From contig CAYHPN010000002.1 of NCBI GenBank assembly GCA_964358765.1, forward strand, positions 1-60,862: 60,862 nt of DNA, in the 5' to 3' direction. The position numbers were made by a program, and so were the translations under genes. The notes under the pieces were generated by a model. The model did no database searches, was not told the DNA's origin, and was given only the letters and a program-made list of their open reading frames with translations. Shown one piece after another: positions 31,675-58,045 of this stretch (position 1 is the stretch's first letter; each line of letters begins with the position of its first letter). The stretch is from Candidatus Woesearchaeota archaeon. GTDB lineage: Archaea > Nanobdellota > Nanobdellia > Pacearchaeales > GW2011-AR1.

Positions 31675-31803
31675 ATATTAACTGATTACAACTTATTGCC
31701 TTGGCACCTATTTAATTTAAAAATTCCACATTAATCTTTTATTTTATCCACATTCGTGGTTTAATCCACTAATCTGCTTTGAGGTATTACTGATAATGAA
31801 AAT
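31675..31803. repeat. Conserved ~130-bp non-coding element, copy 1
   Basis: Collinear with 59005-59134 and roughly 80% identical by eye. Confidence 0.85.
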
Positions 31804-34800: not shown

Positions 34801-37800
34801 CCTTCGTTTAAATTTAATAATGAGAAATTGTTATATTGGCCATTTAAAACGGCTGATTGATTTGTCATATTCAAATTGGAGTTTAAAACTAACTGTGCAC
34901 TTGAAAATCCGTTATTATCTGTTGCATTATAAATTAAAGTTATATTGCCTGTTGTAGAATATGAAAGATTTGAAGTTATTAATGAAACTAAAGGTGGAAG
35001 ATCTAAAATCGTGAAATTTCTAGTTAGAGAAGTATTCGTATTTAAAGCCTCATCAATACAAGTAACATTCCAGAAGTGAGTTCCTGTTGATAATGATGAA
35101 ATGGTCGTATTAATTAATGTTCCATTTGGTGAACTAATGCCTGAGAGCTGTACAACACTATCTATAGTTAAATTACAGGATAATGTTGTATCCATATTAT
35201 CAAATGCTGTGAAATTGAATTCAACATAACTTACTTGAAATGAGGAGTTAGCTTGCGGTGCTGATAAATTTATGGAAGGTTTTTGTGTGTCGATAAAGAA
35301 TGTTCTAAAAGATGTATTAGTTCCTTCTAGATTTGTGGCGTCAGTGACATTTACGGTCCAAGTATAAGTGCCACTTGCTAAATTTGTTAGGTTAAAACTG
35401 CTATTGCCTGCATTGTTTACTGCTGATTGATTTGTTTGATTTCTTAAACCATTTAGAATAAGTGTTGAATTAGCAATATTACTATTAACATCAGTGGTGT
35501 TGTAATTTATTGTTATGTTTGGAGTATTAAACCATGTTGCATTGCTTGGAGAAGTTAAATATATAACAGGAGCGGCTGCCGCTGCACCTCCAACAGTTAC
35601 AACCTGTGTGCTAGTTCCATTTGCTGAATCATAAGTTGAAACTGCGATACATCTTATATTATTTGTGGATAATGCGTTTCCATTTAATGAAAAATTGGAA
35701 GAAACTAGAGTAGTCGATAAATTTCCAAAAGAATGAGGATTTGTCTCACCTGGACTTAAAATTATATTTCCTGATGCATTTATATTGGTCCAATTCTCTG
35801 TTGAAGTATTTCTCTGAATATAAACTTGCGTATTTCTACAAGTACCTATTGAGCAATATGCCTGGCAGGTAACATTAAAGTTAGAATTTAACGAAGGCGC
35901 TGGATCGGAAGTTGGATATGATAAATTGACTCTTAGAAAACCCTCAGTTGATATGTTAATTGCAACAAAAGAAGAAGTTGGTGAATCCCAATCGTGAGTT
36001 ATTGTTCTTGTTGTACCTCCATTAGTATTAAATGCGTCTATAAGGTATAATAATCTGTCTGAAGGGCTTAGTCTTATATTTGAACTTATACAAGTAGTAT
36101 TTTGTCCGGTTATAGTTCCAGCTAGAGGAGTGCCAGAAGAACCGTCATCCCCATTTTGACATAATAAAGTGATTCCAGTACTATTTGAAATATATATTTT
36201 CCATGTTGCTTCAACATTTGCATGACTTGCAGAGAAACTAGACGAGAAATCAACCACGCTTCCATAAGGAATTACTGCTCCATTTGCCCCGATTATTTGG
36301 GTTGAAGCATTTACAATATTTCTTAAAGTAGAAGGAGGAATATTCCAGGTAACTGAATTTTGGGTTGTATCCTGAGAATTGTTTAATCTTATAACTGCTG
36401 TAACATTATTTGAAAAACTGCTTGTAAATGTTTCATAAAGTACTCTTTGGAAACTAATATCTGTGTAATTTACATTAACTGTTCTGTTGGCAGTTATATT
36501 TGTGTTTCCATACTGATCTGTGCAAGAGACACTCCATAAATACTGGCCGTTAGACAGGTAATGGTAAAATGTTTCGTTTACATCTTTAGAAATTGAAGAA
36601 CGGAATTCTGTAGGAGTTCCATCTGTATATAAAGTACAATTACCAATTGCAGAAGTATCAGTTACATTAAAAACAAAATAAAAGCTAAAACCATCAGTAA
36701 TATTTGAATTGTTTGCTGGAAAGACTAAAGAAACAAGCGGAGGAGTAACATCGACCGTAGTTGTTGTAAAATTATAAACTCCAGAAGAATTGCATCTTCC
36801 ATCTATACAAGAAGTAATGTTGAAAAAATAAGTTATTTGACCAGAGAGCCCAGTTAAATTGAAAGTGTGCGAAGTTTTAGGAAAATTATTTCCTAGAACT
36901 GTTCCTAATGATGGTGTAGTTCCATAGTTAATTGTTGAATTTGACTCTACATCTGTACTCCAGTTTACTTTAGCTGAAGAAATAGTAATTTGAGATACAT
37001 TGACATTAAATATTGAAGGTAAGCTGGTTGGACAGATTCCGGACCAGGAAGTACCGTTTGGATAAAATGCTTCCCATATTGCTTGAAAAGTAGTATTTGC
37101 GAATGAAACTATATAAGCATTTTCACAAAGCTGAATCTGTGTTGTAAATAATTCTGATGCTACATCGCTATATTGATCAGAATTCGACTCGACAGTATTT
37201 GTTTGTGAAATATTAGTTCCATTAATTATTAAAGTTTGAGCATATGTGCCTACATCAGTATTATCATCATACCATGAAATTACAAAATCATCTTGAGTTA
37301 TTGCAGAAACTCTAGTGTCTCTCCCAGTGTTTGGGTTGGCATCAACACTTGTTGTACTTACAGAAACCGTCCCATTAGGAAGATATACTTGAAAACTGAT
37401 TAAATTATCGTTTATATCTGACCAGCCTATTACAATCTTGCTTTCATTTATTGCTGCTACTGAAACTGATCTTGAATTTCCACCATTTGAATCTACTGTA
37501 ATTGCTGATGAAATGGCAGATCCAGAAAGACTATAAGTTTGAAAAAACACGTCATTGTTATTTCCACCATCATCGAACCACCCAACTGCAAATGCTGTCG
37601 AATTGATTGCTGAGACTTCTATGGATTGAGATGATCCTCCGACATTAGTGTCAACGTCAGTAGCTGAAAGAATAGTTGATCCAGAACTTGAATAAACTGC
37701 AACAGTATCATCTGAACTCCCTCCAGTACCTGTTTCATCATGCCAGCCCATTACGAAAGCAGTTGAATTTATTGCTGAAACTGAAACTGCGTAAGAATTT

Positions 37801-40800
37801 CCAGCAGATGTGTCTGCATTAACTATTCCGGTAGTATTTGATAAAGAAGAATTAAACATTTGGAATCTAATAGCATCATCTACAGAATCATACCATGCTA
37901 CTACAAAAAGATTTTTGGTTAAAGGAGTTATATCTACTGAATGACCTGCTCCATTTGCACTGCAAGCTCCCGCGCTTGTATCGACATCGTAAGGCTGATA
38001 TAATAATTTCCCTGAAGTATTGAAAACAGCTGATGAAATATCATCTTCAGTGTCGTCGCACCATGCTACCAATAGTTTATCAAAATCCAAAGGCGCATTT
38101 GCAACCGAAGTGACGGAATTATTAGAAAATTGACTTAATGTATAAAAATTCGTAATAAATGAGGATTGATCATATTTTGTAGAGTCATTTACACTTGTAA
38201 CATTAAAAGAAATTGTATAAACATTTGATGTTTGTGCAGACGTATTAATTTCAAAGAAAATAGTCGTACCATTTTGAATATTTGTGAAATAAGACTGGTT
38301 TAATGTAGCATAAGATGCGCCAGAGACATTCGAAATATTTACAATGTAATCGCTTGCGACAGTTCCATTATTTGTAAAATTTAAAATATATCTTACGTTG
38401 GTGTTGACTGACCAGATTTGCTGTGTTACTGGCTCTCCTATGATTGGAGTTCTGTCTCCATCAGTAGTTGTGAAATTGTGAGTTCCAGTAGTATTGCATC
38501 TTCCTTCGAAACAAGAGGTAACATTGTAATAATATAAGGTATTAGAAGACAATCCTAATAAAGTAAAAGCCCTATTTAATACTGGGTTGTTACTTGATTG
38601 AATTGTTCCAAGACTCTGAGTTGCTCCATAGTTAATTGTTGAATTTGCTAAAATGTCCGTTGTCCAGTTTACAATTGCAGATAAACCCGTAATTGATGAA
38701 ACAGTTAAGTTTAATATTTGAGGGACATTTGTTGGACAGATTCCGGACCAAATTGTACCGTTCGAATAAAATGGCTTGAAAAAACCTTGAGTTGAAATGT
38801 TCGATATTGCAACAACAAAATTATTTTCACATAATTGAATTCCAGTGGAATACTCTTCTGAAGCTACATCTTGAAAGGACAAAGTAGTAGTCTGAATGAC
38901 CGTTTCTGATGATAATTGAGTTAAATCAGTAAGCAAGGTTTGGGCAGAAACACCAACATCTGTGCTTGAATCATACCAAGATAAAACAAATCTATCTTCT
39001 GCAAGGGAAGAAACTCTAAGAGGTCTTCCCGTATCTCCAACATTTGTATCTATATCCTGGGTTCCGCTAATTGAAGTTGATAAAGTTGTAATTGTGGAGA
39101 AAGAGGCATCATTAACCGGAGTTCCTCCCCCGCGATCCACCCAAGACAAAACTGCCAAAGAAGAATTTAATACGGAAATAGAAACTGACTCGGAAGTACC
39201 TGCTCCACCATCTACATCAAAAATAGAAGAAAGTGCTGTTCCAGAAACTGAATAAGTAATAACACTCGCATCATTTTGGCCTCCATCAAACCAAGCGAAC
39301 ATAAAAGCAGTCGAATTTATTGCGGATACATCTACAGAATTTCCTGTAGTTCCCGAATCTGTATCGGCATCAGTTTCTACTGAAATAGCTGTTCCGGAAG
39401 AAGTATAAGTTCTAAAAGTTGAATCTGATGAAGTAGCATCATACCAACCTAATATGAATGCTGTTGAATTAAATGCTGAAGCGGAAACTGCTGCCGAAGC
39501 TCCTGAATCTGAATCAACATCAACATTATCTGTAAGATTGGATAAAGAGGAATTTAAAATTTTAAAAGTTATATCTGAATCGACTGAATCGTACCAAGAA
39601 ACAACAAAATTGTTTGAATCTAATGCGGAAACTGAAACAGAATAACCAACGGAATTTGCTGTGCAACTCCCAGCAGTTGTATCAACATCGTAGATTTGCT
39701 CCTGCAGTATTCCTGATGTATTAAAAATGCCTAAAGAAATATCGTCATCCGTGTCATCGCACCAAGCAATAATCACTTTATCATAATCGAATGGAGCAAC
39801 GGAAATTGAGGTAATATTATTTGAAGAAAATTGAAATGCTTGTAGGAATGTTGTTTTAAAGGATGCGGAATCTCTAAATGTAGTATCATTTATACTTGTT
39901 ACGTTCAAAGTAATATTTATGGTGTTTAAAGTAGATGAAGATATATTTAATTCTAAAAATACAGTAGAACCTGGGGCAATATTGTTGAAGCTCGATTGGT
40001 TAAGTGCTATATAAGACGCACCAGAAGTATTTGTAAAGTTAACCATGTAATTATTTGATGCTGTTCCGTTATTTGAGAAATTAAGGTAATAAATTACATT
40101 TTGATTAACAGTCCAAGTTTGATTCGTAATAGGATCACCAATAACTGGAGTGTAATTTACTAAATATTTAGAGAAAATCAAAGATGTTGAATAATTAACA
40201 TTTCCAACAGTATCATTACAATATGCCCTTATTGTGTAACTTCCATCTGCGATGGAAGAGTTTGTTGCATTGAATCCTGTATTAGATGAATTGGCAGTCA
40301 TTGTGTAATTAAAGACTCCTGAATTTAAAGTGTATCTACAGTTACCTGCTTCATTTAATGTAAAGTTGAATGGGATGGATGAAGAAGTATAAGTTATATT
40401 TTGAGGATTAACAATTGTAACTTGAGGGGGGATTGAATCGACACCAAAATACCTTATTCCAGAAGAGGAATTCATATTTCCTTCAGTATTGTTACATGCA
40501 AAAACAACAGTATGGGAACCTTGCGACATAGAAGAATTTGTATAGTTAAAATATGTACTATTAAACTGAGTCATTGAGATATTTGATGCACCATTTAAGG
40601 ATAAACCGCACCAACTTCCAGCCATGTTTAAAGAAGTATTGAAATTTATTATAGTAGTTGTGTAATTTTGACTCAATGGAGACACAATTGAAATTGTTGG
40701 TTTAGGCAGAGGAATAATCGTTACATTTCCTGTGCTGTTAACCCAGGAAGTATAATTTATACTGTCAAAATATCTAAGTGCACAAGACCAATTTTGACCA

Positions 40801-43778
40801 ATTGAAAGATTTCCGCTAGCTAATGATGAAATAAACAACGTTCCATTTGAATAGGAATTATTATAATCTAAAGTTAAATTTAAAGCATTATTTTTAAACC
40901 ATCTCACTGAAACATTCATTGATTGATTATTTTGATCTGCAACATTATCATAACAGTTGAGATTGCTACTTGAAGAATTTAATCCATTTGTTGAATTAAT
41001 TTTAGGAAGAGGAGCTACTGGGGCGGTGTTTTCAAGATAAATTAAAACATTATCTAATCTTTGAGCACTTGTATCACCCGCATTATCATCAGGAGTCTCT
41101 CCAATTCCTACTCCTGCCCTTCCTGAAGCAATATTTGAATCAACTGCTGAACAAACTACATTATTTCCATCATAAACTTGGATTAAAGTTCCAGATACTT
41201 TTAAAGTAACATTGTCTCCAGTAGTGAATTGGTTGTCTGCTCCACAAGAAGTATTAAGATTTGCTTCTGTACCGCTGACTGCTCTCCATAAATAGGTATT
41301 TGCCGCAGTTGCACTAAAACTAAATACATATGCATTAGCCATTGTTGCATCAGATCTAACAGTTAGGTAAGAATAATCATCTCCAGTATCTTGTACTGTG
41401 TAAGTGGCTTTAATCATTTGATTTGCGACCCAAGGCTGAGAAATGCCTGCATAACCTGCTGAACCATCATTTCCAGCTCCACTACCAATTAATTGATTTG
41501 AATTTATTTCTAAATCTGAACCTGAACTAAATATTTCTGTCCAACCAGTTCCTAAATTGGGAGTATGTTGAGTAAATAAATTGTCCCCATCTGTATCAGT
41601 AAAAGTATCATTAAAAACTAAGACCATATTATCTTCAGGAGGGTCAATAATATGGTCAAATTCTAATGAACCTGAAACGACTCTAAGGTCAAAAATATCT
41701 TGTTCTAATGAGAGATTGGCTAAAATAAGTTTATTATATACATTCTCATTTATTGGGGAAAACTCTCCAATCTTTATCGAACTATTAAATTCATATACTT
41801 CAACTCTTGGATTTCCAGAAACAATTCTAGGAAAAATAGTAATGTCGTTTCCATTGGTTAACGCCCTTTCAAATTTTATTCTAACATATTCATTGTTATT
41901 TACTGGTGAACTCCAAATATTATCCTGCTCTTTAACTTTATCATAAATATCTTCAATAAATAATTTATTTTCATCTAAATGCTCTGCCTTTATTACTACT
42001 ATAATCTGAAATGTCTGAAATGATAAATGGGGCACATTCCATTCTATATAATCCAATAAACCATCTTTGTCTGTGTCTATTGCATTAAAATCTATGAACC
42101 TGTTTTCTTCTTTCCAGAATATCTTTATTGAATTTTTATCGGAAGTCAGTTCTTCTATATTTGCGTAGGCCAAAACATTTTCATAATGTAAATTGCTAGG
42201 AGAGCTAATTTCTACTATTTTTTCTTTATATGATAATACTTTCTCTTCTTTTTTAGGTGGCTCTGTAAAATATTCTATTTCCATATTTGAAAAATTTTGT
42301 TCATTTATTAAAATTATGGTTTTATTTCCTATTACGCTAGATACATAATTTACTGGTAAACCTGTTAATTTATTAATGACTGTAAAATTTATTGAAATTG
42401 GAATTTCCACTGTATTTTCTTTAACAACTTTTTTCCATTTAACTGGAAGATCAATTTCTGCGAAATACTGAATTTCCTCAATTGAATTATCAACTACATT
42501 AAAAGAGTAAACAGTTTTTTTGTTTCCAATTATTAATTCTAATGAATAAACACCAATTTGATCTAAATTGTATATGAAGAAGTCATTTGAACCAACTCTT
42601 GAAATTTTCCCATTTGAAGGAGAAGTTAAGATTAATTCATAGCTACCCAACGTCCTTAAATTTATCTTTAGTCTTTCTCCTAAAGAATATGAATTTGAGT
42701 TTTGAAAATTAAACTCAATAATATTTCCAACAACTATATTAAATGTTTGGTCGCTTAAATGCGGAGCATCCCATTGTATATTATCATAAAGTCCATTATT
42801 GTTCATGTCAAATAGATCAAAATCCAGATATTCATCTTCTTCATTCCAAAAAATAGAGACCATGCTTTCTTTAGAAACTTCTTCTGGTAGATTTACATGG
42901 GAAACAACATTTCTATAATGCATTCCTTTTGGTGAAGAAATTTTAACATGCTTTTCTTTTTCTGAAACGAGAGCTTCTGATAATATTGCAGGATCTGTAT
43001 AATATTCTATCCCCATTGGAACATTTTCATTATCAAGAGTAATTGTTATATCTCCTAAATTATCATTTAAACTGATTAAACGAGAGAATGTGTTCTTAAT
43101 TGGATTATTTGAAACTTTAAATTCTGATTTTTCAATCTTGTTATTGATAATTTTATAGGCGGTAATATTTTTCGCCTGGATAGGAATATCTAATTTTATT
43201 TCCCTAGTTTTACCATTTATTATTTTAGTCCATTTAACCTGCTTATCGATTTCTACCCTTTCATTATTAATCTTAATTCTATTTTCTAGAATTTTATTAT
43301 TGAACTCTATTCTTTTAGAATAAGATTGAGATTGAAAGTTGCCTTCTTTTGAACTTGATTCACGCAAGATTGGTTTAACCTGTTCATTAAAAGTTTTAGG
43401 AGGGTTTTCTTTAATAGATTCTTTAATGTTCGAACTGTTGATTTCCGTATTATTTGCCAAGACTTCAAAATAAAATTCCTTAGTTATTTCGCCGTATGAT
43501 AAAATTAAATTGTATTCTCCAATTTCCTCTGGATTAAATGTAAAGAAATCATTTGATCCTTTTTTAATAAAAGAAGTTGAAGGCGTATTTATCTTAATTG
43601 TATAATTCTGAAAATCTTGAAGATTGATTTTTACCTTATCACCTAGGAAATAAGTGTTCTTTTCAATTATTGCTGAAGCATTTTTAGTTGAAAATGAAAT
43701 AATTAATACAGATATAACTAAGGCTATAAAAAATGTAAATACGCCTGTTTTAATTAAACCTCTCTTATTCATTCTCAA
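31803..43778 (-). CDS. Giant secreted glycoprotein G2 (3991 aa): duplicated prodomain, IIDP, lectin-like domain, two propeller+FN3 blocks, tandem Ig repeats, CARDB and C-terminal module-A-like domain
   Basis: WxxPHLSxQTF twice, FDHIIDP near aa 712, SVxVSAxxxxxFVxxWYD repeats, WNVTCxD Ig repeats, and C-terminal AWQFVYG..YDYEIRIPARLREY..VFYTEVT. Confidence 0.92.
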   Translation of the reverse strand: MRMNKRGLIKTGVFTFFIALVISVLIISFSTKNASAIIEKNTYFLGDKVKINLQDFQNYTIKINTPSTSFIKKGSNDFFTFNPEEIGEYNLILSYGEITKEFYFEVLANNTEINSSNIKESIKENPPKTFNEQVKPILRESSSKEGNFQSQSYSKRIEFNNKILENRIKINNERVEIDKQVKWTKIINGKTREIKLDIPIQAKNITAYKIINNKIEKSEFKVSNNPIKNTFSRLISLNDNLGDITITLDNENVPMGIEYYTDPAILSEALVSEKEKHVKISSPKGMHYRNVVSHVNLPEEVSKESMVSIFWNEEDEYLDFDLFDMNNNGLYDNIQWDAPHLSDQTFNIVVGNIIEFNFQNSNSYSLGERLKINLRTLGSYELILTSPSNGKISRVGSNDFFIYNLDQIGVYSLELIIGNKKTVYSFNVVDNSIEEIQYFAEIDLPVKWKKVVKENTVEIPISINFTVINKLTGLPVNYVSSVIGNKTIILINEQNFSNMEIEYFTEPPKKEEKVLSYKEKIVEISSPSNLHYENVLAYANIEELTSDKNSIKIFWKEENRFIDFNAIDTDKDGLLDYIEWNVPHLSFQTFQIIVVIKAEHLDENKLFIEDIYDKVKEQDNIWSSPVNNNEYVRIKFERALTNGNDITIFPRIVSGNPRVEVYEFNSSIKIGEFSPINENVYNKLILANLSLEQDIFDLRVVSGSLEFDHIIDPPEDNMVLVFNDTFTDTDGDNLFTQHTPNLGTGWTEIFSSGSDLEINSNQLIGSGAGNDGSAGYAGISQPWVANQMIKATYTVQDTGDDYSYLTVRSDATMANAYVFSFSATAANTYLWRAVSGTEANLNTSCGADNQFTTGDNVTLKVSGTLIQVYDGNNVVCSAVDSNIASGRAGVGIGETPDDNAGDTSAQRLDNVLIYLENTAPVAPLPKINSTNGLNSSSSNLNCYDNVADQNNQSMNVSVRWFKNNALNLTLDYNNSYSNGTLFISSLASGNLSIGQNWSCALRYFDSINYTSWVNSTGNVTIIPLPKPTISIVSPLSQNYTTTIINFNTSLNMAGSWCGLSLNGASNISMTQFNSTYFNYTNSSMSQGSHTVVFACNNTEGNMNSSSGIRYFGVDSIPPQVTIVNPQNITYTSSSIPFNFTLNEAGNCRYTLNSGVFNYTMTANSSNTGFNATNSSIADGSYTIRAYCNDTVGNVNYSTSLIFSKYLVNYTPVIGDPITNQTWTVNQNVIYYLNFSNNGTASNNYMVNFTNTSGASYIALNQSSFNNIAPGSTVFLELNISSSTLNTINITLNVTSINDTTFRDSASFKTTFLQAFQFSSNNITSISVAPFDYDKVIIAWCDDTDDDISLGIFNTSGILQEQIYDVDTTAGSCTANSVGYSVSVSALDSNNFVVSWYDSVDSDITFKILNSSLSNLTDNVDVDSDSGASAAVSASAFNSTAFILGWYDATSSDSTFRTYTSSGTAISVETDADTDSGTTGNSVDVSAINSTAFMFAWFDGGQNDASVITYSVSGTALSSIFDVDGGAGTSESVSISVLNSSLAVLSWVDRGGGTPVNDASFSTITTLSTSISGTQDIDTNVGDTGRPLRVSSLAEDRFVLSWYDSSTDVGVSAQTLLTDLTQLSSETVIQTTTLSFQDVASEEYSTGIQLCENNFVVAISNISTQGFFKPFYSNGTIWSGICPTNVPQILNLTVSSITGLSAIVNWTTDILANSTINYGATQSLGTIQSSNNPVLNRAFTLLGLSSNTLYYYNVTSCFEGRCNTTGTHNFTTTDGDRTPIIGEPVTQQIWSVNTNVRYILNFTNNGTVASDYIVNISNVSGASYATLNQSYFTNIQNGTTIFFEINTSAQTSNVYTISFNVTSVNDSTKYDQSSFITNFYTLSQFSNNSVTSVANAPLDFDKLLVAWCDDTEDDISSAVFNTSGKLLYQPYDVDTSAGACSANGAGHSVDITPLTKNLFVVAWYDSVDDAIRFQMFNSSLSNTTGIVNADTSAGNSYAVSVSAINSTAFVMGWHDETGTGGSSDDTVAVYSSSGSTILSATDVDTNVGGSSQSIEVSAINSTAFAVGWFDDGGNNNDVFFQTYSLSGSAISSAITVDSNGGNSRSVSVAAINESKIVIGWSDINDNLISFQVYLPNGTVSVSTTSVDANPNTGRDTRVSAITQDDFVISWYDDNTDVGTYAQTLIINGTNISQTNTVESNSDQYSDVASELFTTQIQLCENAYIVSFANTTFQAIWEAFYPNGTSWSGICPTSLPSIFNVNVSQITISSAKVNWSTDVESNSTINYGTTPSLGTVLGNNFPKTSHTFNLTGLSGQITYFFNITSCIDGRCNSSGVYNFTTTTVDVTPPLVSLVFPANNSNITDGFSFYFVFNVTDTSAIGNCTLYTDGTPTEFRSSISKDVNETFYHYLSNGQYLWSVSCTDQYGNTNITANRTVNVNYTDISFQRVLYETFTSSFSNNVTAVIRLNNSQDTTQNSVTWNIPPSTLRNIVNASTQIIGANGAVIPYGSVVDFSSSFSASHANVEATWKIYISNSTGITLLCQNGDDGSSGTPLAGTITGQNTTCISSNIRLSPSDRLLYLIDAFNTNGGTTRTITHDWDSPTSSFVAINISTEGFLRVNLSYPTSDPAPSLNSNFNVTCQAYCSIGTCRNTQVYIQRNTSTENWTNINASGNIILSPGETNPHSFGNLSTTLVSSNFSLNGNALSTNNIRCIAVSTYDSANGTSTQVVTVGGAAAAAPVIYLTSPSNATWFNTPNITINYNTTDVNSNIANSTLILNGLRNQTNQSAVNNAGNSSFNLTNLASGTYTWTVNVTDATNLEGTNTSFRTFFIDTQKPSINLSAPQANSSFQVSYVEFNFTAFDNMDTTLSCNLTIDSVVQLSGISSPNGTLINTTISSLSTGTHFWNVTCIDEALNTNTSLTRNFTILDLPPLVSLITSNLSYSTTGNITLIYNATDNNGFSSAQLVLNSNLNMTNQSAVLNGQYNNFSLLNLNEGTYTWTVNVTDSGGLNATNLSVRTFMVDKRAPNISLNLPANNSYSNSSTVNFNFTVIDSIDTILLCNLTAGEKSDLNFAANNGSLTNRQITGFTDGEKIWNVTCFDDAGNFNISQNWVVNITEYPSISLNTANNSFYNSTSFILNYTPSDNTALDYCDLYIDNAFNQTDDTISNGVQNSFTVSGISEGVHTWYTACNDTIQLRNQSQIRSFTVDLDGLNISLIYPQDGANLFVLTLNLSFNATDNIDTTLDCNITVNSIVVNSSTVTSGALTNRSITFATGGTKIWNVTCVDDSSNRITSITRNFSLEQGPSVALGDPINNTFQNISSAIFYYDISDSNDNLANSTLILNGQNNQTNQSALLNDATNNFAITLPDGIYLWTVNVSDLTNLVGTDASFRVLTIDTKQPSIILNYPPNTTTLSTNNITINYTAFDNMDTNLTCNISIDESMVVINIPSYNATEVINYVTRSDGNYLWNVQCIDDSGNLNFSETRDFTVEAPPNVTLQSPQNGNISNINNLTFIYYPSDAIGIFNCSLIIDNAINSSSGTITANANNSFTVNGISEGIHNWTVACTDIFPDFNLFTAQLNNFTIDNTAPNITLITPENNTNQLRAVIFNFTAFDNLDADLNLSCNFYIDNSLNLSSINLTNGSIVSRTVYNHALGAHSWNVSCVDDARNRGWSSKWQYNVTLADLMVNSTSINFNTTSPSENDSVLINATIYNLVNVTVSNITIAFYNGDPRTTGRQIGSNQTIAVLSPLSQTTASIVWSAELGTNIIFVVVDPPYSSNGSIEEWTETNNIANNSITTGAWQFVYGEINSNTKYDLADSQNNSVVRWESVNFDTGNIYVTDSESIVSWATLQAIGKNTTNQNTTNDFSDIDSLLNMTNYTDSVTTLFSNGTSPRNITNYLVFNIYVNNVPIANSTNNTNFYTGILWDMSDNNATNNSQFDITDKEDLIFSTQINKDKTGAYGTYDYEIRIPARLREYRTTQTSSVVFYTEVT

Positions 43779-44069: not shown

Positions 44070-44208
44070 TTAGGTATATACAAATTATTTTCATAAAAAA
44101 TTATCAATTTTTTTTATAAAAATGCATATTACATTTGAAAAATAGTTGATGATCTATTTCGCTCTATCCGCATTATAAGCAGTAGATAACAGAATTGATG
44201 ATAATATT

Positions 44209-44430: not shown

Positions 44431-44492
44431 TATATTTTCATTATAATATATATGACAGAATTGTTTTAATATATATAATATATCAGATAAGT

Positions 44493-45086
44493 ATGATAAA
44501 AGCAATTGTTTTTGATTTGTCAGGCGTAATTTTTACAAGAATGAGCAACATACATGAAATATTGGAACCTATAATAGGTTTAAAGAAAGACGAAATAACT
44601 TTAAAAATGAAAAATAAAAGTTTTTATGATTTCTTAGAGGGAAAAATAAATGAAGATGATTATTGGAAGAAAATAATAGGGGGCAATAGCTGGAATATTT
44701 CCATTGATGAATTAAAAAAAGCAATGAGAGATAACTTTAGAGAAATTGAAGGAACTTTAAATATTATTAAAAAATTAAAAAAAAATGGTTTTTTACTTGG
44801 ACTTTTATCTTCACATACAAAAGAATGGACTCAATATTTAAATCAAAAATACGATTATGAAAAATATTTTGATGGAATTGTATATTCTTTTAACGAAGGC
44901 GATACAAAGACAAACATTTCTTTATATAAAGAAATACTATTTAAATTGAAGGTTAGTTCTTATGAATGTATTTATATTGATGATAAAGAAAAATATATAG
45001 AACCTGCAAAAATATTGGGAATGAAAACTATTTTGTTTGAGGATTCTGAAAAGTTAAAAAATAGATTAAATTATTTTTTAAGATGA
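44493..45086 (+). CDS. HAD-superfamily phosphatase (YihX-like subfamily IA)
   Basis: MIKAIVFDLSGV, LGLLSS, K in GDTK, and CIYIDD..AKILGM. Confidence 0.9.
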   Translation: MIKAIVFDLSGVIFTRMSNIHEILEPIIGLKKDEITLKMKNKSFYDFLEGKINEDDYWKKIIGGNSWNISIDELKKAMRDNFREIEGTLNIIKKLKKNGFLLGLLSSHTKEWTQYLNQKYDYEKYFDGIVYSFNEGDTKTNISLYKEILFKLKVSSYECIYIDDKEKYIEPAKILGMKTILFEDSEKLKNRLNYFLR

Positions 45087-47002
45087 TAATGAATAAAACC
45101 AGTATAACTCAATTGTTAGAGAAAGGTAATTTTGGAGAGTACACTTTATTGGAAAAAGTTGGCGATACTAGTAAAAGTCTAGTTTATATTGGAAAACACC
45201 TAAGATTAGAAAGAATAGACGTTGTTAAAATTCTTAAAGATCCGACAGATGGGGACAGAATACAACAATTTTTGGACGAAGGTAAAAGACTTGTTGAAGC
45301 TGGTGAACTTGATAATCTTCCCCATGTATATTATGCAGGTGAATATCAAGGATTCCCCTATATCGTAACAAGTCACATTAAAAGCGATGAAGGAAATTTA
45401 GAAGATGTTGTTAAATCAAATAAATCACTACCTCTCAAAGATTGTTTGGATATTTTGATTGATAGTTCCAGAGGATTATATAATCTTCATAATATGGGAA
45501 TTATACATGGAGATGTTAAACTCAAAAATCTAATTAGGGGAGAAAGTAAAAATATTTTACTAGGAGAAAGAAAGAAAACATATTTAATTGATTTAGGTGG
45601 GAAATTATCTGTTCAATCAAACTATCCTGGTGATGTGGAAGCTCTTGCAAATTGTATGTTAGAAGTTACAAATATTTCCGATATAAATACTCCGCAAAGA
45701 ATAAGAGATTATTTAGAAACGGTTTCACGAAATAGTGAAAAAACTAACGCACAAGATTTCCATTATCAAATTTTAAGATTTAGAAAGATAATTTCAAGAA
45801 GAGAATTTATAAAAAAGGCGACAATTATTGGGGCCTGCACTTCTCCTATTATGGCTGGATCTGTTACTTTATATAATAAACTTAAATACGAAAAAACAAT
45901 TGATTATGTTATAGATGAGATAAAAAATACCCCCACTCAAGATCATGGAGGATTAGAAAGATTATTTAAAAAACTAAAGTTTAGGATATGTGATCAAAAA
46001 ATTGGATGGTTAAGTGAGGAAAAAATAAATAGCAAGGAATTGCCTTTTGCAACAACAAAAGACGGAAATTATTTTAAAATGGATCCAGGTTATTGGACTG
46101 ATGGTTTTTGGTCTGGAATTTTATGGGAGGCTTATTTAACCACGAAAGAGGAGAAATTTAAGATTTTGGCAGAAAAAAAAACACTTGAAATTGATAGTAT
46201 GAAAGAAGATGAAGACGCAAATAATGCGGTGAGATATTTTTATTCTCATGCTAAAGCCTATGAAATTACTGGAAAAGAGGTATTTAAGAAAAGGGCCAGT
46301 AAAGGTTTGGAGATATTAAAAAATAAATTTGATGAAAGAATTGGGATTTTTTCCATTAATAAGGAAAAATTAGCCTCTGAAGCTGGAACTATGATGGATT
46401 TTGTCCCCTTTCAATTATGGGGTTACAAAATTACAGGAGACAAAGATTACCTAAGTAAAACTAAAGAACATGTGCAAAATGTTTGCAAATACAATATTCG
46501 AGATGATGGTTCAGTAAGGAGAGCTGCAATTGTAAATTCCGAGACAAAGAAAGTTATTGGAGAGCTTAATCAAAGTGGCATAACAAATGAAAGTACAGTA
46601 TCAAGAAATCAATCCCAAGTAATTATGGGAATTGTTAAATATTTAGAGATTAACCCTGATGATGAAATTGTTAATAAATACATGGAAAGAATAATAGATT
46701 ATTATACCTTGTCTGAAAATCTCACTGAAGATTTTATTCCTTATTTTGATTTTAGTGCAGAAAGAAATGGCAAGTATCCAAAGGATAGTTCAGCAGCTTC
46801 TATGTTTATTTATGCAATTAAAAACTTAAAACAGTATAAAAAATATTATTATCCAATTAAGAGATCATTATGCTTAAACTATCTTTCTAGCAATTTAGAA
46901 AATTATGAAGGATTAATAAAAAACGGATGCAGCAATTGGAAAGAAAATAATTATACCCAGAGTTCTTTAATTTGGGGAGATTATTTTTTTATAGCAAGTT
47001 AA
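45083..47002 (+). CDS. Ser/Thr protein kinase fused via an SRR/hydrophobic segment to a GH88 (unsaturated glucuronyl hydrolase)-like domain
   Basis: Kinase motifs VVKIL, FLDE, IIHGDVKLKN, LIDLG; then ISRREFIKKATIIGA; then GH88-like WTDGFWSGILW, TMMD, SRNQ, KDSSAAS, SLIWGDYFF. Confidence 0.85.
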   Translation: MIMNKTSITQLLEKGNFGEYTLLEKVGDTSKSLVYIGKHLRLERIDVVKILKDPTDGDRIQQFLDEGKRLVEAGELDNLPHVYYAGEYQGFPYIVTSHIKSDEGNLEDVVKSNKSLPLKDCLDILIDSSRGLYNLHNMGIIHGDVKLKNLIRGESKNILLGERKKTYLIDLGGKLSVQSNYPGDVEALANCMLEVTNISDINTPQRIRDYLETVSRNSEKTNAQDFHYQILRFRKIISRREFIKKATIIGACTSPIMAGSVTLYNKLKYEKTIDYVIDEIKNTPTQDHGGLERLFKKLKFRICDQKIGWLSEEKINSKELPFATTKDGNYFKMDPGYWTDGFWSGILWEAYLTTKEEKFKILAEKKTLEIDSMKEDEDANNAVRYFYSHAKAYEITGKEVFKKRASKGLEILKNKFDERIGIFSINKEKLASEAGTMMDFVPFQLWGYKITGDKDYLSKTKEHVQNVCKYNIRDDGSVRRAAIVNSETKKVIGELNQSGITNESTVSRNQSQVIMGIVKYLEINPDDEIVNKYMERIIDYYTLSENLTEDFIPYFDFSAERNGKYPKDSSAASMFIYAIKNLKQYKKYYYPIKRSLCLNYLSSNLENYEGLIKNGCSNWKENNYTQSSLIWGDYFFIAS

Positions 47003-47024
47003 AAAAAATAAAAAACAAAAATAA

Positions 47025-47330
47025 CTAGTATGGGTTGCATGGAGGATATCCTGGATCTCCACATCTAATTTTAGTTCCTGCATCTAGAGTTCTTGTTCCA
47101 GAAGTTGTTTCCATTGTCGTTTGCTGAGTTAATGTTATATAATTTTCTGGAGAACCTCCTATAAGAGACCCAACTGGTAAATCCATGGCCCCTATACTGG
47201 TCAGTGCATTATACTCAGTTAGTGCAAGTTCATAAGGTACTGGATCATCGGCAGTTGACATATTAAGAGCAACCACAATTAACACTATGGACAAAAGTGC
47301 AATTATTGAATAAAATAGCTTTTTTTTCAT
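47025..47330 (-). CDS. Small secreted/membrane protein with C-terminal CGDPGYPPC motif
   Basis: Signal peptide and an upstream AAGGAGGT ribosome-binding site. Confidence 0.75.
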   Translation of the reverse strand: MKKKLFYSIIALLSIVLIVVALNMSTADDPVPYELALTEYNALTSIGAMDLPVGSLIGGSPENYITLTQQTTMETTSGTRTLDAGTKIRCGDPGYPPCNPY

Positions 47331-47417
47331 TTTTGTAACCTCCTTTTATAGGTTACTCTAAAAATATATCTTAAACCACACTGAGTAAATGGGATAAAAT
47401 TTTTCATTTCTGGATAA

Positions 47418-48302
47418 CTAACTATTTAATTCCAAAATTAAGGGCAATATATTTCTTAAACCAATAAGAATCGCGGATAAATGTTGGTCTCCTTTTTTTG
47501 ACAAATTAATTTTATTTGAAAGCTCCTTTGATTCCAAGAAAAGCAATTCTAATTGAGCATCATCATATTTATTATATATAGCATGTAATTCTGATAATTG
47601 TTTATTTAATAATCTTAAATTCTCAATTAAAGAAAGAGAAATTCTATCTAGATTAAGTGAGAGAAAATTGCAAATATCCTTGTATTTGTCTGCAGTTTCT
47701 TCTAAACTTTTTACTAAATAATAATATTTAGGAGTTTTCTTAAAATCAGAATGCCCTCTTTTAATTAGCACCCTAAGGCAGTAGTTAGAAAGTTTATTTA
47801 TTGATTTGTCAAGTTTTGATATATCTTTAAGCTTTAACGCATCTTTGCTTTTTATTGCGTTTAAACTTTCATTGGATAAGTCAATTAATAAGTACCATAA
47901 TCTTTTGAATGCGTGATTATATTCATTTTTTTCGTTTCCTGTTAAATCTTTAATAGTACATGAATTTTTATCTTCTAAGATTATATCAAAACCTATTAAT
48001 TCTTCCTTCACTATTTCTCTTATTTCTTTGATAAACGCCGGGTCCTTAAAATGAATTATAATTTCATCAAAACCCAACCTATATGCTGAAGTTATTGAAC
48101 TTTTGCCAATTCTTCTTAAGTTTCCAATATATATTTCTTTTTTTCCATAACTGGTATCTAAATTTTTACTTATCATTAAATCGTGCCCTAGTTCTTCTAC
48201 CTCAAGCTCATCTCCCTTTTTTATGTTTTGATTTCTGGCCCAGATAGAAGGGAGAGAGATAGTTAAAGTTGAAGGGCCGTGAAGAATAATTTTTCTTTTC
48301 AT
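47418..48302 (-). CDS. Archaeal AbrB-PhoU-type regulator
   Basis: MKRKIILHGPSTLTISLPSIWA..IKKGDEL; SAYRLGFDEI; DKSINKLSNYCLR; LEETAD. Confidence 0.85.
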   Translation of the reverse strand: MKRKIILHGPSTLTISLPSIWARNQNIKKGDELEVEELGHDLMISKNLDTSYGKKEIYIGNLRRIGKSSITSAYRLGFDEIIIHFKDPAFIKEIREIVKEELIGFDIILEDKNSCTIKDLTGNEKNEYNHAFKRLWYLLIDLSNESLNAIKSKDALKLKDISKLDKSINKLSNYCLRVLIKRGHSDFKKTPKYYYLVKSLEETADKYKDICNFLSLNLDRISLSLIENLRLLNKQLSELHAIYNKYDDAQLELLFLESKELSNKINLSKKGDQHLSAILIGLRNILPLILELNS

Positions 48303-48441: not shown

Positions 48442-48831
48442 ATGGGAATGATAATAAGCTCTAAGAAAAAAGGAAAAAAGATAATTTCTGAATTTTTATC
48501 CGATTACGATGAATTTTTACAATTAAAAGGACATTTGGATGATATCCGATTGTTTTCTGAAAATGTCGGAGGAGTCCAAACAAATATTAGCCAAAGAGGG
48601 AAAAATGAAGCAACAAAATATTTCTTGATTCCAAAGCAATATAGGAGAGGTTTTAAATTTAATAATTCAGTATCATGTCAGAAGCTAGATTTTGATGATA
48701 AAGCAATATTTGTTTATATTGTAGATAAAACAAAAATAAACCCTTCAAAAAGAGAACAGTCTATCAAAAAAATAGAAGAAAAATATACCCAAATTGAAAA
48801 GACTTCCCATTTACCTTATGGGAGTTTATAA
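48442..48831 (+). CDS. Hypothetical protein, possible AbrB-like swapped-hairpin DNA-binding domain
   Basis: RGKNEATKYFLIPKQYR. It is divergent from the PhoU-type regulator. Confidence 0.65.
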   Translation: MGMIISSKKKGKKIISEFLSDYDEFLQLKGHLDDIRLFSENVGGVQTNISQRGKNEATKYFLIPKQYRRGFKFNNSVSCQKLDFDDKAIFVYIVDKTKINPSKREQSIKKIEEKYTQIEKTSHLPYGSL

Positions 48832-49459: not shown

Positions 49460-51412
49460 ATGAGAAATACGAAAGGAGGAAAGATACTTACTTGGAAGTT
49501 TATAATTATATCAATAATGATGTTTATTTTTTCTTTTTATCTAATTTACGCACAATTAATTCCAGGATTACATACAATTCAAGGTTATATTTTTAATAAT
49601 GGAGGAAGTCAAGCACCCGCAGGAACAAAAGTCTGGATAAATGCAACTACAACGGGAAGTTTTACTTCATTATTAACCTCCGGACCGCCTGGAAACACTG
49701 GATTTTATTCTTCTTCAATAAATGCGAGTGATGGAGAAAGTATAATTGTTACTGTATTTAATGCTACTGCATATGGGAGAAATTCAACTTTATTATTAAA
49801 CTCTCCTTTATCTACTAGATTTAATTTGACTATGAATAATACTAGACCTGGAGAAACAGATATTAATATTACTTCTCCATCTAATGGTGCATCCTTTGGA
49901 CAGTATGTAGTTTTTAATGTTAATTTTAGTATTACTGCTATTGGGGGGGAGAATAGTGTAAATTGTAATGTTACAATAAATATTTCTGATGAGAATATAA
50001 TGAATATTACAACTCTAGAAAATAAAACTAAACAATTGGGAAATATTAACTTAGGAAATTCTTTAGGGGGATATTTCAATATTCAGGCAAAAAACCAGGG
50101 ATCTAGTTATATAACTTTGACAAGTGTCTGTTCAAGTGATGGAATTAATTTTGAAAACTTGAAGAGTGAAACAATTGGCGTAAGTGTATCTGCTCAACCG
50201 CCTCAAATGCATACCATACAAGGATATATTCTAAATATAAATAATGTTACTCAAGTTCCGACTGGGACAAATGTTACTATAAATGCTACGACTAGTGGAA
50301 GTTACATGTCAGTCTTGACTTCTGGGCCTCCTGGACAGACTGGATTTTATTCTACTACTATAAACGCAATTGATGGAGAACAATTTATTGTTCATGCACA
50401 GAATGGAACGTATGAAGGGACAAAGACCATAAATGCAGTAAATAGTCCAGGCACTACAAGAGTTAATGTAACACTAGATACTAAGATTATTCCAGATTTA
50501 TTTATTAATTTTAGCGACATTTTGTTTTATGGAAACTTAATAGAGAATGTAAACATAACTGTAAATGCTACTATAAAAAACATTGGAAGGGCAGATGTCG
50601 GTAATTTCACAGTTCAGTTTTTTAAAGAAGATCCAGATTTTGGAGGAACTTTGATACAAGGAAATTTGACAATAAACAATCTTTCAAAAGGACAATCTGC
50701 AACCTTATCCGTAAACTATACAACAACAATAGGAAATAACAATATTTTTGTTCTTGTGGATGTTCCTTTTTCCGTGAATGGAAGTTATTCTGAATCAAAT
50801 GAAACAAACAATAAGGCAAATAATACTTTGAATATTACTGCATGGCAGACTATTTATGGAAATATTTCTATTGACAAATTGATAGGAGATAACTCAACTA
50901 GGAATATAAGTATATGGTATGATGAACAGAGTTTCTCTGGAAATGTCTTTATCAGTGATACTGAAAATACAATAAACTGGAAATCTTTGCTGGCAATTGG
51001 CAATAACCTAAGTGGAACTAATACAACAAATGATTATTCAGATTTAGATGCCTTATTCAATATGACTATTTTTAGAGATTCTGTATCAAATAAATTTACA
51101 ACTGATGGAAATCATCCAAGAGGCTTGACAAGCATCCTTGCATATCAGAGGAATATAACTAATATCTCGGTTATAAATTCTACAAATACCTCTAACTTTT
51201 TAACCGGCATATTATGGGATAGCTCTGATGATGCAGCAGATGGAGAATTCAGTCAGGATGATAAGGAAGACGTAGTATTTTTTACAAATGTAAACAAAGG
51301 TATGCAGGGAGCGTATGGAACTTATGATTATGAGATAAGCATCCCAGTAAGATTAAGGGAATATAGAAATAATGATGTACAAAATGTTTTTATTTATTTT
51401 GATATCAATTAA
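49460..51412 (+). CDS. Secreted protein with a GPPG-repeat head, CARDB and module-A-like tail
   Basis: The first ~340 aa are paralogous to 18433..20301. The last ~300 aa are paralogous to the G2 C-terminus (ESNETNN, AWQTIYGN, YDYEISIPVRLREY). Confidence 0.9.
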   Translation: MRNTKGGKILTWKFIIISIMMFIFSFYLIYAQLIPGLHTIQGYIFNNGGSQAPAGTKVWINATTTGSFTSLLTSGPPGNTGFYSSSINASDGESIIVTVFNATAYGRNSTLLLNSPLSTRFNLTMNNTRPGETDINITSPSNGASFGQYVVFNVNFSITAIGGENSVNCNVTINISDENIMNITTLENKTKQLGNINLGNSLGGYFNIQAKNQGSSYITLTSVCSSDGINFENLKSETIGVSVSAQPPQMHTIQGYILNINNVTQVPTGTNVTINATTSGSYMSVLTSGPPGQTGFYSTTINAIDGEQFIVHAQNGTYEGTKTINAVNSPGTTRVNVTLDTKIIPDLFINFSDILFYGNLIENVNITVNATIKNIGRADVGNFTVQFFKEDPDFGGTLIQGNLTINNLSKGQSATLSVNYTTTIGNNNIFVLVDVPFSVNGSYSESNETNNKANNTLNITAWQTIYGNISIDKLIGDNSTRNISIWYDEQSFSGNVFISDTENTINWKSLLAIGNNLSGTNTTNDYSDLDALFNMTIFRDSVSNKFTTDGNHPRGLTSILAYQRNITNISVINSTNTSNFLTGILWDSSDDAADGEFSQDDKEDVVFFTNVNKGMQGAYGTYDYEISIPVRLREYRNNDVQNVFIYFDIN

Positions 51413-57300: not shown

Positions 57301-58045
57301 AGCTATGCTTCAGAATGCGGAATACAATAAAGGACTTCCATATTTTGTAAACTTAAGGCCCATATTGCATAACACTAGAAGGTTAAGTGATGAAGTTTTG
57401 GATAAATACAACCAGTATAATGATACGATTGATGATTTAGATTATCAAATACAACAATTAGAACAAGAAAAAATAGATATTTTTGACTTGAAAATGGAAC
57501 TAAAACTTGTAAAAGATAAATTGATGACTGGCAATTTCACCGTAGTTGACATATATCTAGAAGGATTAAAACCAAGAGTGGAGAAAAACTGGCAGACAAT
57601 TGGAAAACAACCAAAAAAAAGAGAATTAAAATTAATTGATGTTGCTGAACTCGAAAGCGCATTAGCAAAAGCTAATGCTGAAAAACTAAAATGGCAAGCA
57701 CAGAATGCAAAGACAGAAGAAGCAAAACAAGAAAAAGCCATTGACAAAGGAGCTATAATCGTTAAGCCGATTACTTTTGATAATGGATTGATGGTTTCTT
57801 CATTAAATGAATTGAAAGATGTTATGCCTACATTTGATGATTCTGTATTTAAAATTCATGTAAATGATAACAAGAATGATATTGCAGATTGGATTGGAAA
57901 AGAAATTGATGCAGATCTAGGGAAGAAAGTTAAAGATGTTAAGACTAAACAGGAGATTATGGCAATTATTCAAAACTTTGGAAAAGAAGTTAAAGCTGAA
58001 GAGGTAAAGAAAGATGAGGTGAAAAAGGAGGAGGTGAAGAAATGA
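54341..58045 (+). CDS. Membrane-spanning HerA/FtsK-family ATPase 2: module-A domain, two carboxypeptidase-regulatory-like domains, two Ig domains, TM, ATPase, DUF5752-like domain
   Basis: GATGGGKS, LVFDEVH, REFRKWGLGVMLVSQ. The ATPase core is highly similar to 3107..5302; the C-terminus has FDNG..SLNEL..FKIHVNDNKNDIADW. Confidence 0.9.
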   Translation: MKYNNEKLIVRIRREELYKERRENKIYNLLIGFFIITLLIVISLTIFNWSKITGYVNSISSQAGYITSVTIYSKTNTTIWGGLYGLALRVPGFTQQLFEDLNSGTVERTDVFFDCLKTDAQGGPEIYVSTNPSLVISAGTVAAGSVSTVDSYIGCSGEIYCANNTYTNNMTIYVGSTQITGIPSTHTYKFNASNNIFDIGVLNISGSLAFVSHVNASIQKGFNPNALVNYQMLLPTPANTTVNYYFYSDPNDVCPSGGIGSTIDSTVSGYTKDSNGNILGDVSVTFVGNTTTSNSTTGFYNISYSVLEGTFNLIGQKSGYDTNISNVIINSSDYIVYKNISLKSSIVATENNSAIIIVRGIVKDTGGTTISGANISAGDSSTLTNSSGQYYFSPLLVRGTQPIISVKADYDNYVGFLTVNSTTSIIDYNITMEPANLNQYLNPPTEAAGVDAAGTKTEDETSQARTEAEKAGQDFWISAAEINKQIRENTFVEEKISIYNFKSGGMNIVFSIIGEQIEDIIKIDKSALSIGSNTFDSVILTIYGTKQIGTYKGKLKITGDLDVEVPVNIEIVPKRLPVETLVMEIELFEDSVNIGDDLKYRLNLQNLLTDQGYKVKLKHLIYEYGDSNKSQIIAEENEEVEIKNSLSLIKEFDIKNVSDGKYLVSIEAEYLGLYSNVASPFEITRPIYLYSFFGIPLWIIFIIISAFSFILLNLFIYKRQAEKKKRYHLALRLDTLPKPGERSIKLGKIAEKNIDAFYNMDDLTTHAIVAGATGGGKSIAAQVFVEEMLLKGIAVIVFDPTAQWSGMLRKCDDKRMMSFYPKFGLKPSDAKAFPGNVRQITNYLESLDINKYVNPGQIQVFTMNKMEPKQIDIFVAGVISNIFKSDPKEFPGLRVILVFDEVHRLLPKFGGSGKGFLQIERACREFRKWGLGVMLVSQVLSDFVGEIKANINTECLMRAAEEKDLERIKERYGLDALKSLVRADVGTAMLQNAEYNKGLPYFVNLRPILHNTRRLSDEVLDKYNQYNDTIDDLDYQIQQLEQEKIDIFDLKMELKLVKDKLMTGNFTVVDIYLEGLKPRVEKNWQTIGKQPKKRELKLIDVAELESALAKANAEKLKWQAQNAKTEEAKQEKAIDKGAIIVKPITFDNGLMVSSLNELKDVMPTFDDSVFKIHVNDNKNDIADWIGKEIDADLGKKVKDVKTKQEIMAIIQNFGKEVKAEEVKKDEVKKEEVKK

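Follow-up and report, generated by a model that had tools for sequence, protein, structure and literature searches.

The gene at 45083..47002 of the window, by which we mean the whole 60,862-nucleotide stretch of contig CAYHPN010000002.1 from a Candidatus Woesearchaeota archaeon, encodes a protein in which a compact kinase is fused to a barrel of glycoside hydrolase family 88 (GH88) that, judging from its alignments, lacks the catalytic residues. On balance, and with slightly better than even confidence, we read this protein as a receptor-type Ser/Thr kinase whose non-hydrolytic GH88 barrel binds a ligand outside the cell and whose compact kinase acts on a dedicated AbrB-PhoU protein. In the mechanism that we propose, a twin-arginine motif and the weakly hydrophobic segment behind it would hold the protein in the membrane such that the kinase faces inwards and the barrel outwards, and the barrel would bind a ligand, probably anionic, without cleaving it. 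Occupancy by this ligand would alter the activity or the oligomeric state of the kinase, which would then phosphorylate the co-encoded AbrB-PhoU DNA-binding protein, or bind it in a nucleotide-dependent manner, and thereby change transcription.

The kinase-GH88-like fusion is real and conserved; it is not an artefact, nor is it a single allele in decay. The open reading frame (ORF) is intact, and a full-length AlphaFold2 (AF2) model of the protein had a predicted local distance difference test (pLDDT) score of 89.3. An exhaustive search of 1.84 billion representatives returned 40 proteins at E ≤1e-30, and among the 150 matches listed, 30 proteins of 612-678 aa aligned in one stretch over both domains. 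These full-length relatives are rare metagenomic cluster representatives with one to three members each. Contigs of independent assemblies, made from two samples of one study that may be the source of the window itself, covered 45265-46030 and 45558-46182 with no difference and bridged the kinase, the twin-arginine segment and the barrel. The concern of the preliminary description that the fusion might be an assembly artefact or a unique decaying allele is thus refuted by the relatives, by the junction-bridging contigs and by the eight genomes described below, and the kinase-GH88 architecture, for which it had proposed a search, recurs.

The genome survey covered 41 close relatives of the source genome (G000; 1.75 Mb, 69 contigs, 87% complete) and 401 genomes sampled from the phylum. 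The gene was found in two of the former (G000 and G010) and seven of the latter (G000, G281, G224, G309, G188, G088, and G403), so that the eight carriers comprise the window genome and seven others. The 401-genome tallies, both of gene carriers and of the AbrB-PhoU profile described below, include G433, G283, G371, G360, and G284, on which no claim rests. The copy in G403 (locus L013, 1501..3246 and 3204..3491, on G403:C14) is split over two overlapping frames by a frameshift or a sequencing error.

As read from its sequence, the N-terminal domain is a Hanks-type kinase that has all the residues for phosphotransfer (beta3 Lys, alphaC Glu, HxD Asp, Asn and DFG Asp) and is devoid of the activation segment and the P+1/APE region. 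Pfam Pkinase (PF00069) matched residues 20-157 with E 4.6e-11 and 43 bits, against a cut-off of 31.7, over profile positions 1-136 of 263 only. The family alignment, designated A1, comprised 32 sequences whose members share 23-41% identity. Five residues (K49, H142, D144, N149, and D170) were invariant in it, and E66 (31 of 32), G172 (31 of 32), and D184 (30 of 32) were nearly so; in the window protein, HGDVKLKN begins at residue 142 and DLG at residue 170. The Gly-rich GxGxxG loop was not present. The window protein reads VGDTSKS there, the loop being replaced by a conserved T29 (30 of 32) and K31 (27 of 32). From the DFG Asp to the alphaF Asp there were 10-16 residues in all 32 members, compared with about 36 in protein kinase A, and no member of this truncated-kinase family had an APE-like [ASGT]PE motif after DFG. 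The Pfam match and A1 bear out every element of the compact kinase first described from the window sequence, with HGDVKLKN and DLG retained, a degenerate Gly-loop and no APE segment.

The deletion of the activation segment, the P+1 loop and APE in 32 of 32 members also speaks for a different use of the fold, as a nucleotide-driven switch or ATPase in the manner of Bud32 and RIO, which would signal by binding AbrB-PhoU or the small neighbouring protein p129 and not by phosphorylation. The NCBIfam model of archaeal Bud32 gave a weak match (E 3.8e-5, far under its cut-off), and PhoU-domain proteins modulate a kinase by binding, as PhoU does with PhoR. Structural comparison of a model of residues 1-240 (pLDDT 83.2) pointed the other way, since the nearest structures were true Hanks kinases. 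The closest of the 50 matches listed was PknB (1mru_A), with Z 19.9 and a root-mean-square deviation (rmsd) of 3.1 Å over 212 aligned residues; no RIO or Bud32 chain was among these 50, which is not an exclusion. By sequence, too, the family profile matched PknB best among kinases (E 5e-35), and 28 of the 32 members retain the Lys of HxDxKxxN that is characteristic of Ser/Thr kinases. We therefore consider a switch acting by binding quite unlikely.

The C-terminal domain is, by sequence and profile comparison, a true GH88 homologue without the equivalents of D88, D149, and H193 of the unsaturated glucuronyl hydrolases (UGLs). Residues 333-604 matched Pfam Glyco_hydro_88 (PF07470) with 28.5 bits (cut-off 26.6), and a single-sequence search of the PDB matched solved GH88 enzymes at E 2.7e-20 to 8.5e-15. 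The family profile matched the Bacillus UGL 1vd5 at E 1.6e-62, and hhalign against 24 canonical GH88s gave Prob 100 and E 1.7e-75. In a Foldseek search with the AF2 model, the Pedobacter enzyme 3wiw was matched with a template modelling (TM) score of 0.86 and an rmsd of 2.3 Å, and the Streptococcus agalactiae (2zzr) and Bacillus sp. GL1 (1vd5) enzymes with TM scores of 0.77-0.79. The domain is clearly homologous to these UGLs, shares their (alpha/alpha)6 fold, and has kept the equivalents of W42 (W338), F46 (F342), R221 (R508), and Q223 (Q510) together with the DSSA and WGDY motifs. It differs from them in the replacement of D88 by Ala or Asn, of D149 by Gly and of H193 by Arg, in its fusion to a kinase, and in belonging to a clade apart from 83 ordinary GH88s. 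In the available part of PMC4528949, D149, H193, D88, and F46 are functionally important, and W42 stacks on the unsaturated sugar.

The position of D149 is taken by G435 in three of four alignment methods (MAFFT, the HMMER profile against 1vd5, and hhalign). That of D88 falls on A382 (HMMER, hhalign), N380 (MAFFT), or N381 (phmmer), hence on Asp in no method, and there is no Asp within residues 380-382. H193 corresponds to R480 in the A1 columns and in hhalign, and Q211, W219, W225, Y338, and H339 are replaced by S, V, Q, S, and N, respectively. The preliminary description had matched the two catalytic Asp by eye to DANNAVRY and EAGTMMD and had considered both to be lost. This mapping proved essentially right. 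As a check it had suggested a structure-based alignment to the Bacillus GL1 enzyme; in the sequence and profile alignments by MAFFT, HMMER and hhalign, the catalytic Asp are not conserved. Across A1, Asp fills the D88 column in one of the 32 members; the D149 column has Asp in 12, Gly in 11, Glu in 3, and other residues in 6, and the H193 column Gln in 16, Lys in 7, Glu in 4, Asp in 3, Arg and Ser in one each, and His in none. An Arg at the position of UGL G90 (R384) is specific to the family and present in 31 of the 32. Since the equivalents of D88, D149, and H193 are lost, the domain would not be an unsaturated glucuronyl hydrolase.

A barrel of this kind can still bind a ligand without the catalytic Asp, as the UGL mutants D88N and D175N were crystallised with bound substrate, according to the titles of PDB entries 2fv0 and 3ank. 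The pocket appears remodelled and more basic (R384, R480, and R508), which suggests an anionic sugar or a similar ligand. In an alternative reading, the barrel would still be an enzyme through other residues, such as D439, D475, D556, or D568, and the protein a glycan-processing enzyme that is anchored in the membrane and coupled to a kinase. A single-sequence phmmer alignment with the Streptococcus enzyme does place D439 on the second catalytic Asp; the other three methods disagree, with Gly at this column in the window protein, and the D439 column holds Asp in only 9 of 32 members. The Asp at the D149 column of 12 members means that residual chemistry is possible in those proteins, and the GH105 enzymes YesR and RhiN are active with Asn at the position of the first Asp, as stated in the available part of PMC4528949. 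The absence of His from the H193 column and the five further replacements listed above are at odds with an active enzyme, and the genome search revealed no lyase to supply the substrate. The kinase-fused gene is the only GH88-like gene in G000, and neither a PL8 nor a heparinase II/III lyase was found in this 87% complete genome, which argues against a catabolic role. A residual enzyme of this type is, in our judgement, very improbable.

The phylogeny of the barrel ties it to kinases. In a tree of 137 GH88-like domains, 83 stand-alone or carbohydrate-active-enzyme-type GH88s were split from the remaining 54 by a branch with 99% local support. The tree, built with FastTree only and midpoint-rooted for drawing, omits P0006 and P0154-P0157, which are duplicates or fragments. 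Forty of the 54 were flagged as kinase-linked, 35 through the HxDxKxxN motif and five, which are genome copies, through full-length matches (Pkinase in the case of G188). On the same side of the branch, P0026 and P0057 have Pfam Pkinase, P0032, P0033, P0043, and P0068 occur at full length in A1, P0152 shows alignment to the kinase region, and seven rows of 353-494 aa, possibly fragments, start inside the kinase tail or behind it. When the longer proteins of this side were scanned with Pfam, Pkinase was the other domain in every one, and the kinase domain is complete in P0065, P0075, P0037, P0046, P0074, P0042, and P0049. The canonical GH88 relatives are often secreted, as indicated by signal peptides, Por tails or dockerins in the Pfam scan. 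The barrel clade is thus kinase-fused in every informative case, which fits the sensor domain of a receptor-type kinase. Of the glycan-sensing receptor kinase that had been proposed from the window sequence, it is the non-hydrolytic sensor domain that agrees with these results, the barrel being dead family-wide and its clade kinase-fused. The sensing of uronic acid, also part of that proposal, is not supported in this way, since W42, F46, R221, and Q223 are the only UGL pocket residues with counterparts in the barrel.

Similar arrangements are known from other systems. Like the PASTA receptor kinases PknB, PrkC, StkP, and Stk1, the window protein has an N-terminal Hanks kinase, which in those proteins is cytoplasmic, followed by one hydrophobic segment and a C-terminal sensor. 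It is unlike them in its archaeal host, in carrying a dead glycoside-hydrolase barrel in place of PASTA repeats, in having no activation segment or APE and a T/K loop for GxGxxG, and in the twin-arginine motif before its hydrophobic segment. A carbohydrate-active fold that has been turned into an extracellular module for ligand binding and controls a signalling domain in the cytoplasm is also seen in the RsgI anti-sigma factors of Clostridium thermocellum, with sensor domains of the carbohydrate-binding module (CBM) or glycoside hydrolase type, and in the tobacco receptor kinase CHRK1, whose chitinase-like ectodomain has no catalytic Glu. Those systems use GH10, GH5, CBM, or GH18 folds, whereas the fold here is GH88, and the output domains and organisms differ as well. 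No example of a GH88-based pseudo-enzyme sensor was found in the literature searched.

Membrane topology depends on the segment between kinase and barrel. By its consensus, the motif there is a textbook twin-arginine motif, but it is internal, at residue 238 of 639, behind the kinase domain. Its family logo, with counts out of 32, is [ILV]-[TS]-R(29)-R(30)-[KR]-F(18)-[LI](23)-K(15)-x-[AG]-[AG]; thus R239 is found in 29 members, R240 in 30, F242 in 18, Leu or Ile at position 243 in 23, and K244 in 15. The NCBIfam model TAT_signal scored 13.6 bits, under its cut-off of 16.7. The most hydrophobic 19-mer stands directly after the motif in 29 of the 32 members, with mean Kyte-Doolittle (KD) values of 0.85-2.24; that of the window protein, residues 246-264, has a mean of 1.26. 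The threshold of Kyte and Doolittle is reportedly 1.6. Of the internal SRREFIKK and moderately hydrophobic segment reported previously, the motif stands at residue 238, and the segment is weak. There are seven Lys or Arg among the 14 residues before the hydrophobic segment versus three in the 12 after it, a bias that fits an N-terminus inside and a C-terminus outside. In the AF2 model, the pLDDT was below 50 at residues 239-260, and a continuous helix was drawn over 223-250.

No twin-arginine translocation (Tat) machinery was found to go with the motif. TatC (PF00902, TIGR01912) was not detected in G000, the completeness of which (87%) leaves its absence unproven, nor was TatA (PF02416). With PF00902, none of the 41 relatives had a match over the cut-off, one match reaching 19.6 bits, and none of five other carriers (89-96% complete) had TatC. 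General use of Tat in G000 was rejected, as neither component was found and only 3 of 1662 ORFs had an N-terminal twin-arginine followed by a hydrophobic region, versus 38 with Lys-Lys; Arg makes up 4.1% and Lys 9.5% of the residues encoded in this genome. The only G000 ORF with a convincing N-terminal Tat-like signal is G000:C13:27677-28447 (+), with SRREILKY and then an Ala-rich stretch. The actinobacterial Rieske protein Sco2149 has an internal twin-arginine signal-anchor that is TatABC-dependent, and resembles the window protein in having S/T-R-R-x-F-L-K before a non-N-terminal hydrophobic segment, with a folded C-terminal domain after it. The two cases differ in that the Tat components were not found in G000 or, for TatC, in the relatives and carriers just named.

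In the sister subclade P0037, P0046 (= G188), and P0074, a hydrophobic segment is missing altogether (KD 0.13-0.74). These three proteins, including the G188 copy at L015 1486..3411 (G188:C1), combine a complete kinase with a GH88-like barrel and are presumably cytoplasmic. The kinase-barrel fold can therefore work in the cytoplasm, and because the segment of the window protein is weak and this subclade has none, its insertion into the membrane is a step that we infer only. Were the whole protein cytoplasmic, the hydrophobic segment would be a linker helix and the barrel would control the kinase in response to a metabolite inside the cell, for instance a sugar acid or a sugar phosphate. This account draws on the KD value of only 1.26, on the continuous helix of the AF2 model, on the lack of a Tat system found to export a folded barrel, and on the related full-kinase subclade. 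It is opposed by the twin-arginine motif and hydrophobic region found in about 29-30 of 32 members, 11 of them with KD ≥1.6, by the charge bias expected of a signal-anchor, by the signal sequence of the co-encoded Cys-loop partner, and by the frequent secretion of canonical GH88 relatives. We consider a wholly cytoplasmic protein unlikely.

The kinase gene belongs to a conserved four-gene cassette, which consists of the kinase-pseudoGH88 gene and the genes for a small Cys-loop protein (6 of 8 carriers), an AbrB-PhoU regulator (8 of 8), and p129 (8 of 8). AbrB-PhoU adjoins the kinase gene in six of the seven other loci (L002, L010, L011, L013, L014, and L015) and lies 2.2 kb away in G088; in G188 the gene order is rearranged and the pairing of kinase and AbrB-PhoU is retained. 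A profile of this AbrB-PhoU paralogue scored 302-462 bits in exactly seven carriers among the 401 genomes, the next score being 268. Since G088 was not in the profile, it constitutes the sole independent test. The two other AbrB-PhoU paralogues of G000 have no kinase alongside. In Bacillus subtilis, the Hanks kinases PrkC, PrkD, and YabT phosphorylate AbrB, according to the available part of PMC6213207, and PMC6316755, in its accessible portion, lists proteins of the PhoU family as transcription factors of archaea. AbrB-PhoU is the likely output of the kinase. Beside an AbrB-PhoU gene in another genome, a different 520-aa membrane kinase (L005 1468..3030, G021:C2), whose kinase domain is complete and whose C-terminal part is unrelated, is encoded in convergent orientation, and the pairing of kinases with AbrB-PhoU is accordingly wider than the GH88 family.

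The gene for p129 is directly divergent from AbrB-PhoU in all seven other carriers (E 9e-33 to 6e-57), with 45-66% identity across carriers. For this protein, PDB matches were no better than E 0.35 and Pfam gave no consistent family, and the ESM Atlas returned hypothetical archaeal clusters (Nanobdellota, Aenigmatarchaeota) with a score of 0.89, which is a lead only. The Cys-loop gene lies downstream of AbrB-PhoU and is convergent with the kinase gene, with 22 bp between the stop codons. Homologues or look-alikes with C-x-PPGYPN[PD]-C were found in L002, L010, L011, L013, and L015, and the protein has no Pfam family. A complex prediction for the ectodomain (aa 262-639) with the mature Cys-loop protein (aa 27-101) gave a score of 0.01 and a mark of 0.32, which speaks neither for nor against binding.

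A small Cys-bearing protein as a conserved neighbour recalls a lanthipeptide-synthetase-like enzyme, in which a kinase and an alpha/alpha barrel would together modify the neighbouring Cys peptide, and Foldseek did match the class III synthetases ThurKC, CuvL, and SalKC at E ~4e-9. These matches had an rmsd of ~25 Å and TM scores of 0.2-0.3, and arise only from the presence of two domains of similar type in a single chain. By sequence, the barrel is GH88 (E 1.6e-62 for the family profile), and Pfam at E ≤0.1 gave kinase families, GH88 and a weak DUF4844 only, with no LanC-type match. The kinase starts at about residue 14, which leaves no space for an N-terminal lyase domain; the small protein has a secretion signal and not a leader peptide, and the two domains would sit on opposite sides of the membrane. 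A class III/IV synthetase (LanKC/LanL) was consequently rejected, there being neither a lyase nor a LanC domain, and we attach next to no probability to an enzyme of this kind.

Several of these results weigh against a membrane receptor that signals to AbrB-PhoU. Hydrophobicity in the putative anchor segment is low, with a KD of at least 1.6 in only 11 of 29 family members. A Tat motif precedes the segment, yet no Tat machinery was found in G000, the 41 relatives, or the five carriers, and the sister subclade dispenses with a hydrophobic segment. Lacking activation segment and P+1 loop, the kinase may phosphorylate proteins poorly. Within the barrel, one method puts D439 on the second catalytic Asp, and 12 members keep Asp at the D149 column; the AbrB-PhoU profile scores are partly circular, as six of the seven carriers supplied the profile. 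The receptor reading can also be extended to a self-contained DPANN circuit, to which the literature searched offered no parallel. In it, a route independent of Tat that still recognises the twin-arginine signal-anchor would display the dead barrel outside. As a contact or autocrine signal, the barrel would bind either an acidic glycan of the host surface or the secreted Cys-loop protein, and the kinase without activation loop would act on AbrB-PhoU and the small partner. We put this extension forward as a speculative and rather doubtful possibility; if it is true, it would offer a first handle on host sensing by episymbiotic archaea.

Neither receptor Hanks kinases nor pseudo-enzyme glycan sensors are new as such. 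In the literature searched, no Glyco_hydro_88 plus Pkinase architecture was found, and nothing described the cassette. As far as the searches reach, the combination is new: a GH88-derived sensor, a kinase without activation segment, an internal Tat-type motif without Tat genes found, and a four-gene cassette. To our knowledge, very little is known on how DPANN archaea, which presumably rely on contact with host cells, transduce signals. A re-purposed carbohydrate-enzyme fold on a receptor-type kinase with its own DNA-binding regulator would amount to a sensing pathway that is concrete and can be tested. In addition, the family provides a naturally minimal Hanks kinase without activation segment and a clear instance of a pseudo-enzyme derived from a glycoside hydrolase, and its conserved textbook twin-arginine motif without Tat machinery found bears on how such motifs are read.

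Coordinates of the kinase-GH88-like gene, its domains and other features of the window
Feature	Position	Strand	Description
Kinase-GH88-like gene	45083..47002	+	639 aa: compact Hanks-type kinase, twin-arginine motif and weak hydrophobic segment, helical linker, GH88-like barrel
Kinase domain	45122..45748	+	About aa 14-222; K49, E66, H142, D144, N149, D170 present; activation segment and APE deleted
Internal twin-arginine motif and weak hydrophobic segment	45794..45874	+	SRREFIKK, aa 238-245, then ATIIGACTSPIMAGSVTLY, aa 246-264; putative signal-anchor, N-terminus inside
GH88-like (alpha/alpha)6 barrel	46034..46999	+	aa 318-639; W338, F342, R508 kept; catalytic residues replaced, judging from alignments
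HAD-IA family hydrolase	44493..45086	+	Pfam HAD_2 E 4.1e-16, NCBIfam HAD subfamilies; window-specific neighbour
Small secreted Cys-loop protein	47025..47330	-	101 aa; N-terminal signal-like segment, C-terminal C-G-D-P-G-Y-P-P-C
AbrB(SpoVT)-PhoU regulator	47418..48302	-	294 aa; Pfam MazE_antitoxin/AbrB-type and PhoU
p129, small conserved protein	48442..48831	+	129 aa; divergent from AbrB-PhoU gene
Giant surface-protein and HerA/FtsK-like ATPase genes (joint list)	3107..5302	-	
	54341..58045	+	
	22081..29613	+	
	31803..43778	-	
	49460..51412	+	

The ATG of the kinase gene overlaps the stop codon of the HAD ORF as ATGA at 45083..45086, as had been read in the preliminary description, which had called the gene coupled to a HAD phosphatase. 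No HAD homologue was found beside the kinase gene in any of the seven other carriers. The HAD gene is therefore a local addition outside the conserved cassette and was rejected as a partner of the system. Its motif I reads D-L-S, with Ser in place of the Asp+2 that serves as general acid in HAD phosphatases, and the product may thus be no ordinary phosphatase.

Upstream of the HAD-kinase pair and in divergent orientation, a gene for a 3991-aa surface protein starts at 43778; a giant surface-protein gene in this position was not seen in the loci of the other carriers, which leaves the regulation of the surface locus envisaged in the preliminary description unsupported. Neither a tRNA nor an Rfam family was found at 43000-49500. 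The window as a whole is dominated by giant Ig-like/CARDB surface proteins and two HerA/FtsK-like ATPase genes, a content typical of DPANN cell-surface loci. Its base composition is AT-rich, with 26-36% G+C, and the relatives of G000 have genome sizes of 0.4-1.5 Mb. G000 itself is archaeal and encodes ribosomal protein S3Ae, which among the control genomes gave a match in the four archaeal ones only. Among the sequencing runs listed for the window none is of RNA; four DNA sequencing runs, from two samples of one groundwater study, contain DNA of the window.

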